A DNA stretch of 64,000 bases from a virus, in IMG/VR virus record IMGVR_UViG_3300025598_000020; one strand, 5' to 3'. A program made the translations under genes and the position numbers. Every line of letters begins with the position of its first letter. Positions within the stretch are counted from its first letter, which is position 1. The notes under the pieces were generated by a model. That model did not search any database. It saw only the letters and a program-made list of their open reading frames with translations, and had not been told where the DNA came from. Below, piece after piece: positions 38,994-48,222 of this stretch.

Positions 38994-39548
38994 TTATGTG
39001 GCATTTTTACAATTGCTGAAATGATATCTTGTCATATTTGAACCTTTTCCTGTTAAGTTACAATGAGGACAAGTTACCGATTTCAGTGTTTTTGGTTTGC
39101 CTTTTAGTGAGTTTGCAATTTTTTGTTTTTGTTCTTCGGTATGTTTTTTACCAAGATGTGATATGCTCAAATTTTTCAAATGAGATTCACTAAATTTCAT
39201 TCCTTTTCTGGAATCACTTAGTTTTTTTCTGGATTCTTCTGATAAATTTCCTCCACTACCTCCTGTTTTGGTATTGTAACCATAAGGTGAAAGTGTATTA
39301 TATTCATTGATAAAGAAATCTTCCATTACTGACAATGTATATAATTTGTCTTTGGATTGATAAAGAACTTCCCACACAAAGTTTTCAAATCCATGTTTGT
39401 TTATGGAATTATAGAACAAATAATTTCGTTTACTTGTTTTTGCCGTGTGTTTATGTATTCTTTTTCTTTGAGACCAATTTGAGGAATAACCAATATATGA
39501 TTTGCCGGTAATGGTGTTTGTGGCTTTATAGATAGAATAAATAACCAT
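38994..39548 (-). CDS. Free-standing GIY-YIG homing endonuclease (Seg-like, NUMOD3 repeats)
   Basis: SIYKATN..TGKSYIG, GYN...GG, HTEE.KQKI, C-terminal CPHC..HF..C. Confidence 0.85.
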   Translation of the reverse strand: MVIYSIYKATNTITGKSYIGYSSNWSQRKRIHKHTAKTSKRNYLFYNSINKHGFENFVWEVLYQSKDKLYTLSVMEDFFINEYNTLSPYGYNTKTGGSGGNLSEESRKKLSDSRKGMKFSESHLKNLSISHLGKKHTEEQKQKIANSLKGKPKTLKSVTCPHCNLTGKGSNMTRYHFSNCKNAT

Positions 39549-39619: not shown

Positions 39620-40114
39620 TTACACTCGTAACAATGCGTCCAAGATACTAATTGTTGTCAAGGCATCCTTGTGAAGAATGCCAGTACCACCTGCTTTATT
39701 CCAATCATCAATAACAGAAGGTGTGTCATCAATGATTATGGAATTTTCGTCAGCAAATTTATACTTGAACTGTTTGCCAGGTACAAAGTTTGCAGGATAG
39801 TTAATGCTGTGTTTACGAAGCCAAACTTCTTTTTGACGAGAAATTTCTGCATTGTTAATTGGTCTTGCAGTAGAAGAAAGAATCTCTACAGGAGGAACAG
39901 GTTGATATTTAAGATAATCTAAAAGAACGTTTGCATCAGGCATCAAATCAAGGTTCTGAAACTCTTTGTTTTGAATAAAGATTGCAAACCTTTGGCCAAA
40001 GCGTTTACGAGCATCATCACTTGATGGACTTGTATTATACAACTCATGGTATCTTTTATGGAAATCGGCAATTACACCATCAAGGTCCAAATAAATCTTA
40101 GTAAACTTATGCAT
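39620..40114 (-). CDS. HAD-family 5'(3')-deoxyribonucleotidase-like protein
   Basis: IYLDLDGVIADF, ILSS, K..W, IIIDD. Confidence 0.8.
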   Translation of the reverse strand: MHKFTKIYLDLDGVIADFHKRYHELYNTSPSSDDARKRFGQRFAIFIQNKEFQNLDLMPDANVLLDYLKYQPVPPVEILSSTARPINNAEISRQKEVWLRKHSINYPANFVPGKQFKYKFADENSIIIDDTPSVIDDWNKAGGTGILHKDALTTISILDALLRV

Positions 40115-40712
40115 GTTCTGTTATCACTTCTTTAAGTATGTTTTTGAATTTAACTTTGTCGTATTGTATAAAAGGTGCATACTTTTCACATTTCAATCGC
40201 CAGTTGGGCCAGATAATATCATCGCTGATTTTACGGTCCCACATGGGAAAGAAGTTCATAATATCATTAAGTATGCACAAAGTTTCTACTGAAATAGTAC
40301 CGGACATTACCTCACGGAGTAAGGTTGGGTGTTGACCATCATTGACAATCAACATTTGTTCCGGTGAATCATTTCCTACAAGACCAAGTATATCATTTTC
40401 AAAGACATATGTCAAGCTTTGGTTTATCTTCTTCCACTTTTTGTATGCAACCTCACCTTCAGGTCCTGTCATTTCACCAACCCAAGATGCATCACCATAT
40501 ACAAAATTGGCAATGTAAAAGTTCCGTAATTCTTCCAAGGAAAACTTCCGTGAAAGTTTATAGAAACTGTATTTGTCTTTGCGTTTTAAGAATGTTTCTT
40601 TTGATACATTGGTCTTGCCATTATACTTAAAGAAGTCATAGGATTTTGAGGTGAAGTGTGTCTTCAATGCATTATAAAGAGCGAAAGAGGCAAAGCCTGT
40701 ACCTTCATTCAT
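40107..40712 (-). CDS. Helicase loader gp59
   Basis: Y.ALK.HF....YDFFKYNGK, F.KRKD.Y.F.KL; between gp33 and gp32 as in T4. Confidence 0.88.
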   Translation of the reverse strand: MNEGTGFASFALYNALKTHFTSKSYDFFKYNGKTNVSKETFLKRKDKYSFYKLSRKFSLEELRNFYIANFVYGDASWVGEMTGPEGEVAYKKWKKINQSLTYVFENDILGLVGNDSPEQMLIVNDGQHPTLLREVMSGTISVETLCILNDIMNFFPMWDRKISDDIIWPNWRLKCEKYAPFIQYDKVKFKNILKEVITEHA

Positions 40713-40933
40713 AGTGGAAGTTTAGATGATTTCTTGATTAGGTTAACTGATTGTGCTTCTTCACGGATTCTTGCTTTGAGGTATGGAGAAATCAAGGTGG
40801 CAGCCACCTCAATTTCAATACCAGTATCATCACAATGTTGAACAATGGCATCCATACAATGAATAGAGTGTGTATTGGCCAATGATTCAATCTTCAATGA
40901 GAAGTCACGGATTTCATCTTTAGTTGGCATCAC
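40709..40933 (-). CDS. Late-promoter transcription co-activator gp33
   Basis: FS..IE, DAIV..C...IE.E....LIS..LK.RI..EA...NLI. Confidence 0.85.
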   Translation of the reverse strand: MMPTKDEIRDFSLKIESLANTHSIHCMDAIVQHCDDTGIEIEVAATLISPYLKARIREEAQSVNLIKKSSKLPL

Positions 40934-41774: not shown

Positions 41775-42227
41775 TTAGAAAGAGAACTTTGCGCCTACAG
41801 CAACAGTATTACCGTCAAACTTCTTGTAACGTGAAGGACCATCTTGATAACGATAGTCAGCAGTCAAAGCAACGGCCTTTGTAACTGGAACAGTAACGCC
41901 TGCACCAACTTCGGCAACAAAACGGTCATCTTGCTTGATAGCCTTTGTGTCAAGATAACCAACACCGGCCTTAGCTGTCAATGTTGCACCATTGAATGTG
42001 ATAACATCATAACCAGCAGTTGCAACCAACTTGTCTAGATTACGTTTGATTTCACGGTCAGCTTCAGCAGTAACGCTAAACTTACCAAAGTGTTCACCAA
42101 CAGTCAAGCCATAACCATTACGGTCTTTCTTGCTGCTGTTGTCGATAGAACCATTAACACCAACTTCAACGGCTGATGCAACTCCAAATGCAGCCATCAA
42201 AGTGGCCAATAGAACTAACTTCTTCAT
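41775..42227 (-). CDS. Outer-membrane beta-barrel protein (OmpA/Ail/Lom-like)
   Basis: Signal peptide, alternating beta strands, C-terminal ..GAKFSF (BAM-type signal). Confidence 0.8.
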   Translation of the reverse strand: MKKLVLLATLMAAFGVASAVEVGVNGSIDNSSKKDRNGYGLTVGEHFGKFSVTAEADREIKRNLDKLVATAGYDVITFNGATLTAKAGVGYLDTKAIKQDDRFVAEVGAGVTVPVTKAVALTADYRYQDGPSRYKKFDGNTVAVGAKFSF

Positions 42228-42249
42228 TAAAAACTCCTTTAAGTTAAGA

Positions 42250-42570
42250 TAAGATGGTTGGTTATTCTGTTACGAGGAAACCAACCGAAACCCTAAGCTG
42301 CCTTTAAGCTGCTAATGCGAACTTTTCATCGTTTGCGTTTGTTTTGATTTAGTGTTTACGTCAACTCTGACGGATAGCCTAATATAATACTTGTTACCCT
42401 GTCGAAACCATTGCATCCCCATCATAAAAATTCAGGCTTAGATTATGTGGATGTCCGTGATACCTTAGTCATCTTCATTAACGCACGGCGCAGGCCTGAA
42501 TTTTTATGGTGGAGATGGGGAGAGTCGAACTCCCGTCCAGAATACTTTTCTTATACCAAGTTTACTATCA
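42250..42570 (-). ncRNA. ssrA: Circularly permuted (two-piece) tmRNA
   Basis: Acceptor piece about 42570-42507 ends GGGAGTTCGACTCTCCCCATCTCCACCA. Intervening segment 42506-42421. Coding piece starts GGGGATGCAATGGTTTCGAC at 42420. Tag ANDEKFALAA* at 42336-42304. G3.U70 pair present. Confidence 0.92.
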
Positions 42571-42573
42571 TTA

Positions 42574-42705
42574 TTAGCGCACCGCTTCGGTGTGCTTACC
42601 TTTGACAGACTTCTTTAATAACTTCAACCAAAATTTCTTGGCTTTTTCTAAGTTATGTTCAAACTCTGCACGATTTAGTTTTTGGATTAATTTTTTGATT
42701 TTCAT
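42574..42705 (-). CDS. Small basic hypothetical protein (43 aa)
   Basis: MKIKKLIQKLNRAEFEHNLEKAKKFWLKLLKKSVKGKHTEAVR; ATGA overlap with the upstream gene. Confidence 0.5.
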   Translation of the reverse strand: MKIKKLIQKLNRAEFEHNLEKAKKFWLKLLKKSVKGKHTEAVR

Positions 42706-43034: not shown

Positions 43035-43063
43035 ATTATAACCTTTCTTGGAAAGTTTGTCAA
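43035..43063 (-). promoter_or_regulatory. Consensus sigma70 promoter, likely leaderless mRNA
   Basis: TTGACA-17-TATAAT with 6 nt to the ATG at 43028. Confidence 0.8.
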
Positions 43064-43545
43064 GCGTTAATTTCTTTATATACCACAAGACCAGTAAAAC
43101 TAGTCATCTTCTCTTGAACCTTGAATAAATTATGATGATAACCTATTTGTACATTCACATCCACACTAGGATCATATGAATCATTTAGTTTATTTAGGAG
43201 ATTTACCTTATTTTGCACATCCTGAGCAACTGCCTCTTCTAAAGTATCAAATTCCAATTCAGTTTTTGCAAAGTTATCCACAGCCAAATACGTTGATTTG
43301 TAGTATTCTGGATGTAATCTTTTCTTTACACGGTCAAAAACATGGTGTGAAAGGTGTGTTTCTTCCCAATCTTCCAACCATTCAGGTTTACCTTTTGATG
43401 CAATGAATTCTTTAATCTCACCATTAGGTTTACCGAACATATTTGCATTTTTAAGGAAGTTTACAACATCTGGACACATACCAAAAGAAACATATTCTCT
43501 TTCTGTTAAAATGGTTGTGTCATCAAAGTCTATTGGTTTATCCAT
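43060..43545 (-). CDS. Hypothetical protein
   Basis: 161-aa ORF coupled to its neighbours. Confidence 0.6.
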   Translation of the reverse strand: MDKPIDFDDTTILTEREYVSFGMCPDVVNFLKNANMFGKPNGEIKEFIASKGKPEWLEDWEETHLSHHVFDRVKKRLHPEYYKSTYLAVDNFAKTELEFDTLEEAVAQDVQNKVNLLNKLNDSYDPSVDVNVQIGYHHNLFKVQEKMTSFTGLVVYKEINA

Positions 43546-44200
43546 GATTGTGGTAGTAATTGATTGCTTCGGCTAAGCCATCAATATGATCCTGCACATT
43601 CTCTTTAAAAATTAATGGGTCTGAATCTTTGACAGCCATGATAATGATTAAGTTATTTATTGGTCTGCCAATCATTTCTTCATACATGAGGCTGTATGCT
43701 GTCGTTTGCCAGAAGTAATCAAGAATATCTTCTCTCTTTTTTACTCTTGATGAGGTTTTAAAGTCAATAACTGCCAATTCACCTTCATATTCTGCAATAC
43801 AATCTACACGACCAGCCATTCCCAACTGTTTAGACCACAATGCAGCCTCTTGGTAATGAATGTTGTTAATCTTATTAAGATATGGTTTGATAGACAAGAA
43901 GTATTCCAAGGCATCAGGCATGATACCTTTCATATAATCTTGTTTGTTGTTAAGATAGTTTTCGCAAATCGTATGAACATTGGTGCCACGTGAAGTGGCT
44001 TGTTTGCTGATACGATTGGCTTCTTCATCACCAACACGCTTGCGCCATTCAAAAATGGCTTGTTTTTTCTGAACACCGAGAACGGTGGTTACAGAAGGCA
44101 AACGAGTACCATCTTCAAGAGTATAGTATCGTTTACCGTCAGGAAAAGTTTCAGATTTTAAGTCACTAAGTTCCCGTGGAGGGCAATAATTAAATGTCAT
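43538..44200 (-). CDS. PD-(D/E)XK exonuclease (Cas4-like phage nuclease)
   Basis: PSVTTVL, W..RVG..EA.RI...A..RGT.VH, AGRVDCIAE, IDFKTS, Q..AY. Confidence 0.85.
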   Translation of the reverse strand: MTFNYCPPRELSDLKSETFPDGKRYYTLEDGTRLPSVTTVLGVQKKQAIFEWRKRVGDEEANRISKQATSRGTNVHTICENYLNNKQDYMKGIMPDALEYFLSIKPYLNKINNIHYQEAALWSKQLGMAGRVDCIAEYEGELAVIDFKTSSRVKKREDILDYFWQTTAYSLMYEEMIGRPINNLIIIMAVKDSDPLIFKENVQDHIDGLAEAINYYHNHG

Positions 44201-44454: not shown

Positions 44455-45027
44455 TTACCTAAAAGGAGGTCCTTCAACCCAAACAACAAGGCTATATCTG
44501 GTGCCTTTTGTTACTGGTTTAACTTCATGTAAAGTGTAACTAGGAAAAGCTGCAGCAAAACCAAAGTCTTTTGGTGCTGAAACACCTTTTTTTTCGGCAT
44601 ACAACATCAATTCTCCACCTTCATAATCATTTGGGTCAGATAATTGTATAGTCAAAGATAATTTGCGTCTTGGTTGTGATGGAGTAATATCTATATGTTT
44701 AGAATAATTACCACCGGGTGCCGCATAACGAGTAAATTGTATTTTATTAAAATATTCCAAATCATAATGAAATACATTTTCATTTACATTATTTACTGCA
44801 TCTGTAATTCTTCTAAAAATCCATTCGTTTTCTGAATTTGCAGACAAAAAATTTATATCACTATTTCTATATTCAGAATCAACAATACCTTCAGACAAAC
44901 TGCCTTGAATCTTAGCAGGTTCGAGTGATTTGGTGCCAATTTCTATTATTTGTTTGCATTCGTCTGAAGTAAACAAATTTTCAACATAAGCCCAAGAATT
45001 ATAATACGGTTTTTTTAAACGCCACAT
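44455..45027 (-). CDS. 2OG-Fe(II) oxygenase (prolyl-4-hydroxylase-like)
   Basis: HxD, RKLS.TIQLSDP.DYEGGEL, FPSY.LHEV.PVTKG.RYSLV.W. Confidence 0.9.
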   Translation of the reverse strand: MWRLKKPYYNSWAYVENLFTSDECKQIIEIGTKSLEPAKIQGSLSEGIVDSEYRNSDINFLSANSENEWIFRRITDAVNNVNENVFHYDLEYFNKIQFTRYAAPGGNYSKHIDITPSQPRRKLSLTIQLSDPNDYEGGELMLYAEKKGVSAPKDFGFAAAFPSYTLHEVKPVTKGTRYSLVVWVEGPPFR

Positions 45028-45042
45028 AATATATAAATTATT

Positions 45043-45765
45043 TTATAGAATTTCTGTTGGTGTATTATTTACATCAGTCAATTGTTGTCTGGCAGGTTGA
45101 ATACTCATATTGAAGTGAATAAACCTGAATGGTTTCTTAGAACCGTGTCTACTGAAAGCATGAGGTAACCATGCGGGTGCAAACATAAACATACCGGGTT
45201 TTGGTGCAAAGTTAACTGCGGTGGAACCAAGTGTTACATCAGCCATGTTACGTTCTGGCAAGTTGATTTGTTTCTTTGCTGGCCTTGGGTCATGAATAAC
45301 CACATGGGAACAATCCGGCGGACACTCTAAGAAATAAAAACCAGTTAATTGGGCACCAAATGGGTGTACATGTTCTTCATTAGCTGAGTGCATATGGTGG
45401 TCTTGTAACCACCAATCAGTAAGAGTTACCTCAAATAGATTCATATCAAACCCTTGTTCATTCAAGATATTCCAACCTGTATGTACAGTCCATGAAACCA
45501 TTTCACGAATACGTTCATCCATTACATGACTTTCACTCATCGTAACAGGATATAATTTTTCAGCTAATTTGTTTTTAGGTCCTTTTGCCTTCTCCATTTT
45601 TGCTTTTTCCAAATACTCACGACCAACACCATTGATTGTGTTTAACCATTCTGGTTTTTCAATAGTGTAGATGGGAGTGGGAAAATAAAAGTTAACAGCA
45701 AGTTGGTCCTTAGGAATTCCACAGGCTGGTGCGTCAGAAACTTCACCAATGATTTCGGTTGTCAT
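45043..45765 (-). CDS. Putative 2OG-Fe(II) oxygenase (TIGR02466-like)
   Basis: FPTPIY, HVH, G.YFL, HDPRP, P.WL.H, HFN. Confidence 0.8.
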   Translation of the reverse strand: MTTEIIGEVSDAPACGIPKDQLAVNFYFPTPIYTIEKPEWLNTINGVGREYLEKAKMEKAKGPKNKLAEKLYPVTMSESHVMDERIREMVSWTVHTGWNILNEQGFDMNLFEVTLTDWWLQDHHMHSANEEHVHPFGAQLTGFYFLECPPDCSHVVIHDPRPAKKQINLPERNMADVTLGSTAVNFAPKPGMFMFAPAWLPHAFSRHGSKKPFRFIHFNMSIQPARQQLTDVNNTPTEIL

Positions 45766-45790
45766 AATATCTCCAAAGTTTAATTATGTA

Positions 45791-45819
45791 ATTGTATCAC
45801 TTATTATATATTGTGTCAA
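45791..45819 (-). promoter_or_regulatory. Sigma70-type promoter
   Basis: TTGACA-17-TACAAT. Confidence 0.7.
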
Positions 45820-45843
45820 GCCACCTCGGTGGCTTGAGGTGGA

Positions 45844-46128
45844 TCAAGTGTTTGCTGTGTTTGCTAATGCAGCCATTTGTTGCGTGAGTGAAATCAATTG
45901 TGCTTGTAGTTGTGCTAGTGTTGGTGTTGCTTCTACCACAATTCGTTCTGGTTCTGGAGGAGCTATAAAAACACCGTTATTGTATGTGTGACCCATGTCA
46001 ACATACGGTTTATCTTCGATGTTGATTACTAGATGTTTATCCAATGGAGTCCAAGGAGTTTCTCCATCCCATAGAACAAGATTTTCCACTATATTAGTTT
46101 CTTTATTTACAAGTGCATGTCTTAACAT
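45844..46128 (-). CDS. Tail fibre assembly-like small protein (likely start MLRHAL)
   Basis: V.N...WDG...W.P...G.TY..G.F.AP pattern; AGGA RBS; follows the Gly-rich gene. Confidence 0.6.
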   Translation of the reverse strand: MLRHALVNKETNIVENLVLWDGETPWTPLDKHLVINIEDKPYVDMGHTYNNGVFIAPPEPERIVVEATPTLAQLQAQLISLTQQMAALANTANT

Positions 46129-46138
46129 TTTTATTTCC

Positions 46139-47167
46139 TTACCACGAATAAACAATAACTTGGCCGTTGCCACCAGCACCACCATTTCCAGATGATCCAC
46201 CTTGATATGCTGCTCCGCCTCCTCCTCCACCACCAGAAGGAAATCCACCTGCACCACCAGGACCACCGTTGACTCCACCTGATCCAGAACCACCACCTCC
46301 GCCGCCACTGCCACTACCATAGTATGAATTTTTTGATCCGGCTGTTCCTGCTGTTCCACTATTAGCAGCTGAACCTTGTGGTCCTTTTGGACAAGATAAA
46401 TATCCGCAAATACCTAATCCCGATGGTCCACCGTACGCACCACCATTGCCAATCTTTGTACATGACGAACAATAGAAATGTCCGCCATATCCACCTCCTC
46501 CGCCACCCCATATAGAACCGCCGGCACCTGAACGACAATCATGGCAATAAATGACTTGTCTTCCTAAACCAGCTCCTCCACCCCATTCGGCGCTGTTGCC
46601 ATTGCCCTGAGATCCGTAAGCCCCGGAGCCGCCTACCGTACATAAAACAAAGTACGGGCCGCCGACACTAACTCTTGGAAAAGAATAACCGCAACAGTTT
46701 TGATATAATGGAGCTGAACTAGCTCCTCCTCCGCCACCGCCTTGGGAGAACTTAGTTTTGGCACTAGGACCAGCTCCACCTCCAAAAGCATAAAAACTTC
46801 CAAAAGATGAGTTTCCTCCGGCGGAGCCGGCATTTCCAGAAGAAGCGTAGGTTGCGGATCCGGAACCACCAGTTCCTCCACTTCCTACGGTAACCGAAAC
46901 TGTAGAAGGTAAACAAGCAGCTAAAGTAAACAATCTATATCTTGCTCCGCCTCCTCCACCGGGACCGGCCGTATATGCTGTACCACCTACTCCTGCGGCA
47001 CCCCCACCACCAGCACCCCATACACACACTTGAACAAAAGTTACGCCCGCTGGTTTAGTCCATGTTCCACTTGAAGTAAATTTTTGTACATTGGGTGAAC
47101 CTGCAGCTGAAGTTTGTATAGTTGAGTCCGGAAATTGAACTCCGGTAGATACGAGAGATACTGACAT
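46139..47167 (-). CDS. Glycine-rich adhesin/fibre protein
   Basis: FTSSGTWTKP.G...V.V.GAGGGG, polyglycine blocks, GG.G.VIV.W terminus. Confidence 0.8.
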   Translation of the reverse strand: MSVSLVSTGVQFPDSTIQTSAAGSPNVQKFTSSGTWTKPAGVTFVQVCVWGAGGGGAAGVGGTAYTAGPGGGGGARYRLFTLAACLPSTVSVTVGSGGTGGSGSATYASSGNAGSAGGNSSFGSFYAFGGGAGPSAKTKFSQGGGGGGASSAPLYQNCCGYSFPRVSVGGPYFVLCTVGGSGAYGSQGNGNSAEWGGGAGLGRQVIYCHDCRSGAGGSIWGGGGGGYGGHFYCSSCTKIGNGGAYGGPSGLGICGYLSCPKGPQGSAANSGTAGTAGSKNSYYGSGSGGGGGGSGSGGVNGGPGGAGGFPSGGGGGGGAAYQGGSSGNGGAGGNGQVIVYSW

Positions 47168-47274
47168 TTAAATGCTCCTTAAGATGTGATATAAACAGTC
47201 ACATTTACTACCTTATTAATGTTCAAACTGTTATATATTGTCATTTTTTATTCTTTTTATAGTTGACACGTTTC

Positions 47275-47282
47275 TATTTATA
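47275..47282 (-). promoter_or_regulatory. T4-type late promoter
   Basis: TATAAATA upstream of the Gly-rich gene; related NATAAATA boxes precede several structural genes. Confidence 0.6.
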
Positions 47283-47286
47283 TAGG

Positions 47287-48051
47287 TTAATATCCAAGTT
47301 TGTCACACGCCACAATCCAAGATTTCACCAAACTACTTCTTACAATATCGTCTGGTGTAAACTGAATTTCACTAAAATCATCCATATGTCTGGCCACGTC
47401 CAAAAATGCTTGTAATCCAGATACATCATTTCTACTCTTAATCAAGTCATTTTGTTTCAAGTCACCGATAAAAATAATCTTAGAACGGTGACCGACACGA
47501 GAAATCACCGAATTCAATTCATGGAAGGTCATTGACTGACATTCATCCACGATAATGATTGAATTATCGATAGAAATACCACGTATGGCAGTAGTAGATA
47601 TAAACCTGGCATGTCCTTGCTCCTTTAATCTGTCCCACGCATCCTTACGACCGAAAAGTGTCTCACAAATTTCTTTGTAAGGCACCTCATAAATCTCCAT
47701 CTTTTCTTCCAAAGTACCAGGAACATAACCTTGGTCACGAACCTGAACTGCCGAACGAACCACTACAACGTGTTCAAACGGATTGCTTCTGTCTAATACT
47801 TCCTCAATTGCTCTATACAATGCTAAGAATGTTTTACCTACACCTGGTGAGCCTAACAGACCCATGAAGTAATCACCTCTTTTATACGCATCAAAAAACT
47901 TTTGTTGATTCGATGTCAACGCCTCAAAAGTTTTCAAGTGGTCCAGTTTAATCTTTAATGCGTTTGAAGTGACTGGTTGATGTATATAAGTTACTGTATC
48001 GTCAGCCACATCTTCACGTTTTTGTAATGCACTTTTTCTATTGCTTGCCAT
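47287..48051 (-). CDS. phoH: PhoH-family ATPase (likely start MASNRK)
   Basis: G.PG.GKTFLA, GYVPG.LEEK, IRG.S...IIVDECQ, GD..Q.D, DIVRS.LV. Confidence 0.92.
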   Translation of the reverse strand: MASNRKSALQKREDVADDTVTYIHQPVTSNALKIKLDHLKTFEALTSNQQKFFDAYKRGDYFMGLLGSPGVGKTFLALYRAIEEVLDRSNPFEHVVVVRSAVQVRDQGYVPGTLEEKMEIYEVPYKEICETLFGRKDAWDRLKEQGHARFISTTAIRGISIDNSIIIVDECQSMTFHELNSVISRVGHRSKIIFIGDLKQNDLIKSRNDVSGLQAFLDVARHMDDFSEIQFTPDDIVRSSLVKSWIVACDKLGY

Positions 48052-48222
48052 TGAGACCTTCCTTGCTGGTTGTTTATGAGTTTTATTTGGAAGTTTTGTT
48101 GTAGACAGGTGTATCCTTTCTAAGCAGTGCTGGCACTTTTGGTTGAGGTTTCTTCTTGGTGGGTTGTAGATATACCTGTGGTTTGTAAAAACCACCACCA
48201 AGAAGGGCGGGAATTCTTTGTA

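Follow-up and report, generated by a model that had tools for sequence, protein, structure and literature searches.

Two-piece tmRNAs of aquatic T4-like phages are already known. The one encoded by phage Melnitz was published by Buchholz et al. in 2022 (PMC9004378), and the same study counted, by ARAGORN, 53 permuted tmRNA structures in 18,146 phage genomes, with 50 of the 53 being aquatic. In Melnitz and the pelagimyophage group the presence of a tmRNA is common but not defining, and the Melnitz gene sits downstream of an early promoter (PMC9004378). One-piece tmRNAs are encoded by the Bxz1-group mycobacteriophages and by Bacillus phage G (PMC4131195). In our hands, permuted tmRNAs were confirmed in Melnitz, Mosig and HTVC008M. 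We analysed a 64,000-nucleotide stretch of viral DNA (hereafter the window), for which a sequence-only reading had proposed a permuted tmRNA that would be unusual in a T4-like phage. The claim of rarity fails because such genes have been published in the Melnitz group (PMC9004378); they are found in Melnitz, HTVC008M, Mosig, cyanomyophages and at least 140 viral contigs with a beta-type gene.

The window encodes gp32, gp59, the gp33 late-transcription coactivator, a gp6-like baseplate wedge protein and tail fibre proteins, and it is therefore part of a T4-like myophage genome. It also encodes PhoH and a PD-(D/E)XK nuclease, and its GC content is 35-39% across most of its length. The nearest cultured phages are HTVC008M, Mosig and Melnitz by gp6 (approximately 38% identity) and cyanomyophages by gp32 (approximately 57% identity), all of which are classed as Kyanoviridae.

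Over the whole 64 kb, ARAGORN called one gene only, which it labels as a permuted tmRNA (tmRNA*); the call lies at 42213-42599 on the minus strand and has the tag ANDEKFALAA. Rfam searches of the window matched the full RF01850 model (beta_tmRNA) at 134.1 bits (threshold 84, E 1e-40) and the full RF04321 model (tmRNA_permuted, positions 1-213) at 132.8 bits (threshold 47, E 8.5e-26), and RF01850 was the best-scoring permuted type when the sub-models were ranked. The ARAGORN call and the covariance-model scores bear out the proposal of a phage-encoded, circularly permuted two-piece tmRNA. The elements that had been picked out by eye, namely the T arm, CAUCUCC-ACCA, GGGGAUG, G3.U70 and the P2 pairing, are all present on the minus strand, and the tag frame ANDEKFALAA* was correctly read, from GCA to UAA at 42336-42304. 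This confirms that the window carries a real, intact beta-type two-piece tmRNA gene, whose parts are as follows.

42507..42569, minus strand: acceptor piece, first in the gene (from sequence, Rfam, pair mapping and covariation)
42569-42565, 42560-42551 and 42544-42538, minus strand: P2c, P2b and P2a strands, respectively, in the acceptor piece
42534-42518, minus strand: T arm, GGGAG/CUCCC, 5 bp, loop UUCGACU
42517-42511, minus strand: acceptor 3' strand, CAUCUCC
42510 and 42509-42507, minus strand: discriminator A and encoded CCA
42421..42506, minus strand: spacer of 86 nt, with predicted removal on maturation
42256..42420, minus strand: coding piece, 3' boundary putative (from sequence, ARAGORN, Rfam and pair mapping)
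42420-42414, minus strand: acceptor 5' strand, GGGGAUG, with G3 at 42418
42401-42395, 42387-42378 and 42377-42373, minus strand: P2a, P2b and P2c strands, respectively, in the coding piece
42372-42359, minus strand: hairpin of 4 bp at the PK1 position
42304..42336, minus strand: tag ORF, resume codon GCA, 10 codons, stop UAA (ARAGORN: ANDEKFALAA*)
42286-42256, minus strand: 3' hairpin

The gene order is permuted: the acceptor 3' half comes first, then the spacer, and then the 5' half with the coding part. Pair mapping showed that all seven pairs of the acceptor stem can form, including G3.U70, and the P2 helices of the window are fully paired (7/7, 10/10 and 5/5 pairs). On visual inspection of the PK1 region, no second stem beside the 4-bp hairpin was convincing, and the family alignment loses its register at this place. 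The stability of the 3' hairpin of the window tmRNA was not significant by itself (z -1.0).

We analysed helix conservation in 71 distinct viral copies, using a MAFFT alignment (A2) and the structure taken from the window. The acceptor stem and the T arm were 100% paired across the 71 copies, with A-U/G-C/C-G and A-U/G-C swaps, and G3.U70 was conserved in 71/71. P2a and P2c were 96.7% and 90.4% paired in the same set, and 10 of the 12 pairs of these two helices had undergone two-sided changes. The covariation score of 0.279 compares with 0.130 for shuffled columns, none of the 500 shuffles reaching as high a value, and sliding the partner strand as a control gave scores no higher than 0.11. 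P2b and the PK1 hairpin appeared approximately 40% paired in A2, and their covariation was not judged because the window's sub-clade is out of register in the MAFFT alignment. Of 119 permuted genes, 113 form 7/7 acceptor pairs, and acceptor position 5:68 alternates among A-U, G-C and C-G in this larger set. These substitution patterns argue that the RNA structure is maintained by selection.

The spacer of the window is predicted to fold into a 13-bp basal stem that extends from directly after CCA to 4 nt (UGAU) before G1, with a folding energy of -20.8 kcal/mol (z -2.4). Among 69 distinct viral spacers, 60 end in TGAT, and the basal stem mostly comprises 9-13 consecutive pairs, with a mean of 9.4 vs 5.0 for mismatched partners. 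The spacers of bacterial beta-type genes are shorter, yet they have the identical stem-plus-4-nt layout; lengths are 86 nt in the window, 27-237 nt in phages and 23-44 nt in bacteria. In four related phages, the spacer is 100% identical despite approximately 16% divergence of the flanking ORFs. A new point is thus that the excised part most likely consists of a conserved stem and then a UGAU leader. As a side observation, 6 of 89 distinct spacers (in L082, L076, L015, L060, L093 and L136, the latter being Melnitz) contain a Shine-Dalgarno sequence and an ATG directly after CCA, with which a reading frame of 22-64 codons begins; two of the six frames encode short, hydrophobic peptides, and that of Melnitz continues into the coding piece. 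A small ORF in the spacer of the window was rejected because it has no Shine-Dalgarno sequence and only approximately 11 codons.

The tmRNA gene occupies a slot in which the order is PhoH, PD-(D/E)XK nuclease, small ORFs, tmRNA, gp33, gp59 and gp32. The nuclease is the upstream anchor of this slot, and gp33 and gp59 (40107..40933) are its downstream anchors.

47287-48201, in the window: PhoH
43538..44200, minus strand: PD-(D/E)XK nuclease (Pfam PF12705, synteny)
43035..43063, minus strand: consensus sigma-70 promoter, TTGACA-17-TATAAT, 12/12
43028-42702, minus strand: 108-aa ORF with a signal-peptide-like start
42705-42574, minus strand: 43-aa ORF, in ATGA overlap with the 108-aa ORF
41775-42227, minus strand: ORF of 150 aa, signal peptide present, immediately 3' of the tmRNA
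40933-40709 and 40712-40107, minus strand: gp33 late-transcription coactivator and gp59 helicase loader (PF16805, PF08993, PF08994)

The -35 box of the sigma-70 promoter is conserved in four relatives. This element is likely the early promoter of the 108-aa and 43-aa ORFs, the tmRNA and the outer-membrane protein (OMP) gene, and we infer that it drives the tmRNA. Neither of the two small ORFs has a Pfam match. The 150-aa ORF has its own ribosome-binding site and a weak match to an outer-membrane beta-barrel family (PF13505, 26 bits, below the cut-off), and it is also found 3' of the tmRNA in a subset of relatives, with 40-100% identity. On the strand of the gene, we found no terminator-like site between the promoter and the tmRNA and no intrinsic terminator after the tmRNA, and the model hairpin 309-328, which is probably a terminator, is missing from the window tmRNA in the Rfam alignment. 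A search for a glutamine riboswitch in the window returned none at E<=1. It can be inferred from this arrangement that the pre-tmRNA would be cut out of an early polycistronic transcript.

Other features of this part of the genome were observed. The sigma-70 promoter ends just 6 nt ahead of the ATG of the 108-aa ORF, which has no Shine-Dalgarno sequence; the transcript should therefore start at or beside the start codon and would be leaderless. The promoter-ATG spacing is identical in L096 and L001, with the -10 box TAGGAT. A GIY-YIG/NUMOD3 homing-endonuclease-like ORF (38994-39548, minus strand) lies between an NT5C-like gene and gp32; it looks recently inserted, because its matches in the related contigs are limited to L055 (100% identity) and L104 (46%). 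The gap between PhoH and the nuclease (44455-47167, minus strand) contains two ORFs of the 2OG-Fe(II) oxygenase family and an ORF with a glycine-rich domain, and in the stretch 46001-48000 the local GC content rises to 0.43 with a strong negative GC skew. The distance between nuclease and tmRNA ranges from 10 to approximately 2,900 nt in close relatives (L189-L268), indicating that small ORFs are gained and lost there, as in a hyperplastic region.

To describe the spread of the gene, we used a degenerate pattern of the T arm and acceptor end, which matched at least 118 IMG/VR contigs. Among the 118 matches listed, ARAGORN called approximately 95 permuted tmRNAs, with tags that are mostly AND-x-x-(F/Y)-ALAA, and tblastn of the neighbouring proteins revealed a gene order common with the window in 84. 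In these listed contigs the typical order is PhoH, PDDEXK, tmRNA, hydrolase, gp59, gp32, and gp32 identity to the window ranges from 96% down to approximately 49%. In all, beta-type tmRNAs are present in at least 140 viral contigs, and comparable tags, with an Ala resume codon and a hydrophobic A-A end, in about 140. The gene of L055 is 100% identical to that of the window and that of L096 99.7%. RF01850 scored above threshold in 14 of 18 sampled viral relatives, and L003, L014, L086 and L089 matched the general permuted model only. As a control for bias, we fetched 80 loci by the PD-(D/E)XK protein alone and counted the 61 that have at least 2.5 kb downstream; 46 of these 61 harbor a permuted tmRNA on the same strand downstream of the nuclease. 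The gene is thus dispensable, since about a quarter of close relatives are without it. Altogether, its setting argues that the tmRNA is phage-borne and not host contamination. A blastn search of the window tmRNA against 50,697 GenBank phage records gave no match at E<=1e-5; with L054, which is closer to the consensus, partial matches of 72-83% identity were obtained in Stenotrophomonas, Alcaligenes, Ralstonia and S. elongatus phages. The locus L150 (unpublished genome G036) was left out of all analyses.

In one sub-branch of the viral family (L008, also L040 and L051), there are two permuted tmRNA-like genes approximately 600 nt apart. In L008 (2072-2362 and 2951-3156), one is full length (RF01850, 102 bits), and the second comprises a tRNA-like and P2 part only (RF04321, 58 bits, model positions 3-131), with an odd ARAGORN "tag", ESYALLHL.

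We then compared the gene with bacterial two-piece tmRNAs. A pattern demanding the permuted gene order matched 13 bacterial genomes, and all those labelled more finely than Proteobacteria are Burkholderiales (Oxalobacteraceae/Herbaspirillum, Comamonadaceae, Pseudaquabacterium and Rhodocyclaceae/Azonexus). In an even sample of this order, 4 of 151 species gave a strong permuted match (139-166 bits), and nearly all other Burkholderiales examined with ARAGORN have standard tmRNAs. A maximum-likelihood tree of viral and bacterial rows, built from 149 scaffold columns, split the alpha-type phage rows from all viral and bacterial beta rows (support 100/96), recovered bacterial family-level clades and placed the window inside an all-viral clade of 54 rows (support 85/96); the backbone and the order within the beta group are not resolved in this tree. 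Such a phylogeny had been suggested by the sequence-only reading, and its outcome is that the window groups with the Burkholderiales beta type, apart from the alpha phages. The core of the window tmRNA is 57-65% identical to every sampled bacterial copy and 71-98% identical to viral copies. The tmRNA does not appear to be a recent capture, as judged from these identities, and it has no close donor among the sampled bacterial copies. Among the candidate host genomes, the one with the lowest GC content (G075, about 0.40; 2.0 Mb; tag ANDENFALAA) shows no greater sequence similarity than the rest do.

A betaproteobacterial host had been proposed from the tag. This argument is weak, because the AND-x-x-(F/Y)-ALAA pattern is found on standard and permuted tmRNAs alike across the sampled Burkholderiales, and the tag alone is therefore no pointer to the host. 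What remains of the proposal comes from the scaffold type, which points to a Burkholderiales-type host, with the reservation that type and host class can disagree, as they do in Melnitz.

We also searched for a phage-encoded partner protein. In agreement with the initial reading, which had noted no smpB, tblastn with Burkholderiales SmpB queries detected none in the window (best E=0.63), and as a control the queries find each other at 1e-55 or better. PF01668 was absent from five related large contigs, three of them 100% complete and one 90% complete according to CheckV, in a search whose control was positive in 10 of 14 genomes. With no phage SmpB, the RNA would rely on host SmpB.

We therefore favor, with a probability of approximately 80%, a functional permuted ssrA of the beta sub-type that is inherited and recombined within a large uncultured clade of aquatic T4-like phages. 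Its production would begin at the early sigma-70 promoter approximately 460 nt upstream, with one transcript covering the two small ORFs, the pre-tmRNA and the downstream genes. Host RNase P would cut before G1, just past the UGAU leader, and host nucleases would trim away the 86-nt spacer with its closing stem as far as the encoded CCA; the two resulting pieces would stay attached to each other through the acceptor stem and P2 pairing. In its mechanism, the RNA should resemble bacterial two-piece tmRNA. The RNA would be charged by host AlaRS via G3.U70 and brought by host SmpB and EF-Tu to ribosomes stalled on broken mRNAs, where translation would resume at GCA and append ANDEKFALAA, a label that would direct host proteases to the peptide. 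For the phage, the probable gain is additional capacity for ribosome rescue at a time when host transcripts are being degraded and expression of host ssrA declines.

The locus is mosaic in sequence. We compared four phages, including the window, L104 and L096, in a four-way alignment (A1), with the following numbers of differences.

Upstream region, 545 columns: window vs L104, 9; window vs L096, 87
Scaffold, 230 columns: window vs L104, 1; window vs L096, 0
Tag plus 3' hairpin, 97 columns: window vs L104, 47; window vs L096, 0

When the four phages are compared two by two (six pairs), 0-3 of the 230 scaffold columns differ. The alternative cassette consists of the tag ANESVYRLAA and then a hairpin of wholly different sequence that is still paired. 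Near relatives have scaffolds that are 100% to 71% identical to that of the window, and these values do not follow nuclease identity. These comparisons identify the tmRNA locus as an apparent recombination hot spot, and they bring out a second new point, that the tag-plus-hairpin cassette has most likely been swapped by recombination between near-identical scaffolds. A more far-reaching version would make the locus a modular hot spot in which the cassette is a host-adaptation unit that matches or manipulates the degron-recognition machinery of the host, and in which the scaffold and, on a longer time scale, the entire sub-type (alpha or beta in one slot) are likewise exchanged. We regard this version as possible, if rather unlikely; if true, phages could be vehicles that spread permuted ssrA patchily among Burkholderiales-type hosts.

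The same data raise the question of whether the main role of the RNA might be tag reprogramming, a degron chosen by the phage steering tagged host or phage peptides to, or away from, particular proteases, with the tag cassette as the adaptive module. Consistent with this idea, the tag and the 3' hairpin are exchanged as a unit, and the grouping of the phages reverses relative to the upstream region. Moreover, four different tags (ANDEKFALAA, ANESVYRLAA, ANDEKFVLAA and ANDERFLMAA) occur in relatives whose nuclease is at least 85% identical, and the same tags are scattered over the scaffold tree, where the 8 rows with ANDEKFALAA need 5 changes. However, nearly all tags keep the AND start and a hydrophobic residue followed by two alanines, and with such canonical ends the tags look more like a conventional degron than like a novel signal. 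The mosaicism also spans the whole locus, scaffold included, so that the tag swaps may be neutral by-products of the hot spot. We thus consider reprogramming as the main role doubtful.

A role in counter-defence, which the sequence-only reading had put forward, is improbable as well. The RNA would then be a spare part that replaces host tmRNA hit by abortive-infection nucleases, or that clears toxin-stalled ribosomes. Judged by its sequence, it is complete, chargeable and tag-competent, as such a part should be, and its distance from all sampled bacterial copies could in principle let it escape a sequence-specific nuclease. However, neither the window nor its relatives show any sign of a tmRNA-targeting defence, the gene is missing in about 25% of close relatives, and the proposal in the literature is a general maintenance of translation. 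That the RNA acts as an inhibitor or decoy, titrating host SmpB, EF-Tu or AlaRS and thereby blocking host trans-translation, is very unlikely. The phage supplies no SmpB, which would fit such a role, and the role has been proposed for the RNA of mycobacteriophage DS6A, which has a tRNA-like domain only. Strong inhibition of tmRNA, perhaps through titration of SmpB, is reported for a molecule that resembles the DS6A RNA and has little beyond this domain (PMC4131195). However, the tag frame, the resume Ala codon and the stop are intact and conserved in nearly every copy, which speaks against this role because a pure decoy would not need a tag frame. Finally, tmRNA genes are common integration sites that leave fragments in prophages (PMC9004378), but an inert passenger, i.e., a non-functional host ssrA fragment or integration-site remnant, is barely credible here, as both pieces are complete, the compensatory changes already contradict it, the slot is conserved in a lytic T4-like backbone down to gp32 identities of approximately 50%, and no sampled bacterial copy is a close donor.

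Beyond the known existence of such genes, the functional two-piece tmRNA that we favor adds that a large and old lineage of the betaproteobacterial sub-type resides in phages, and that this lineage fills the slot that marine relatives give to an alpha-type gene. It further adds that the tag moves as a cassette between otherwise identical RNAs, and that the part cut out retains a conserved stem and UGAU leader. These features offer handles on why ribosome rescue is worth an investment for lytic phages and on whether the tag is host-tuned.

The closest described systems resemble the window in different respects. Melnitz, Mosig and HTVC008M are, like the window, T4-like Kyanoviridae myophages, and their tmRNA occupies the same PhoH-to-gp32 slot. 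In contrast to the beta-type RNA of the window, those of Melnitz, HTVC008M and Mosig are of the alpha type (RF01849; 107, 84 and 68 bits, respectively), and the cores of the Melnitz-group tmRNAs are 48-52% identical to that of the window. Melnitz has a glutamine riboswitch after its tmRNA, whereas the search of the window at E<=1 yielded none. The cyanophages S-CAM1, S-CRM01 and S-SSM7 also have a permuted tmRNA in a T4-like Kyanoviridae genome, but theirs is of the cyano type, with RF01851 as the best model, and in S-CRM01 and S-CAM1 it adjoins tRNA genes, outside the PDDEXK-gp59 slot. The gene of S-CRM01, a cultured freshwater phage (NC_015569.1, 88361-88533), is absent from the RefSeq annotation and lies just before tRNA-Leu and tRNA-Met. 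The ssrA genes of the Bxz1 group and phage G are likewise phage-encoded, but they are of the standard, unpermuted form and belong to unrelated phage groups and hosts. The bacterial beta type (RF01850) of Burkholderiales, among them Rhodocyclaceae, Comamonadaceae/Sphaerotilaceae and Oxalobacteraceae, shares with the window the permuted order, the spacer stem at CCA and the 4-nt leader before G1, and the bacterial loci L146 and L147 have an ANDExFALAA-type tag, as the window does. It differs in that the core of the window is 57-65% identical to it, that the viral copies form clades of their own, that the spacer is longer in the window, that the window lacks the last 3' hairpin of the bacterial model (309-328), and that the gene of the window lies inside a phage operon. 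As alpha, beta and cyano types all occur in phages, none of the three permuted lineages of bacteria lacks a counterpart in phages.
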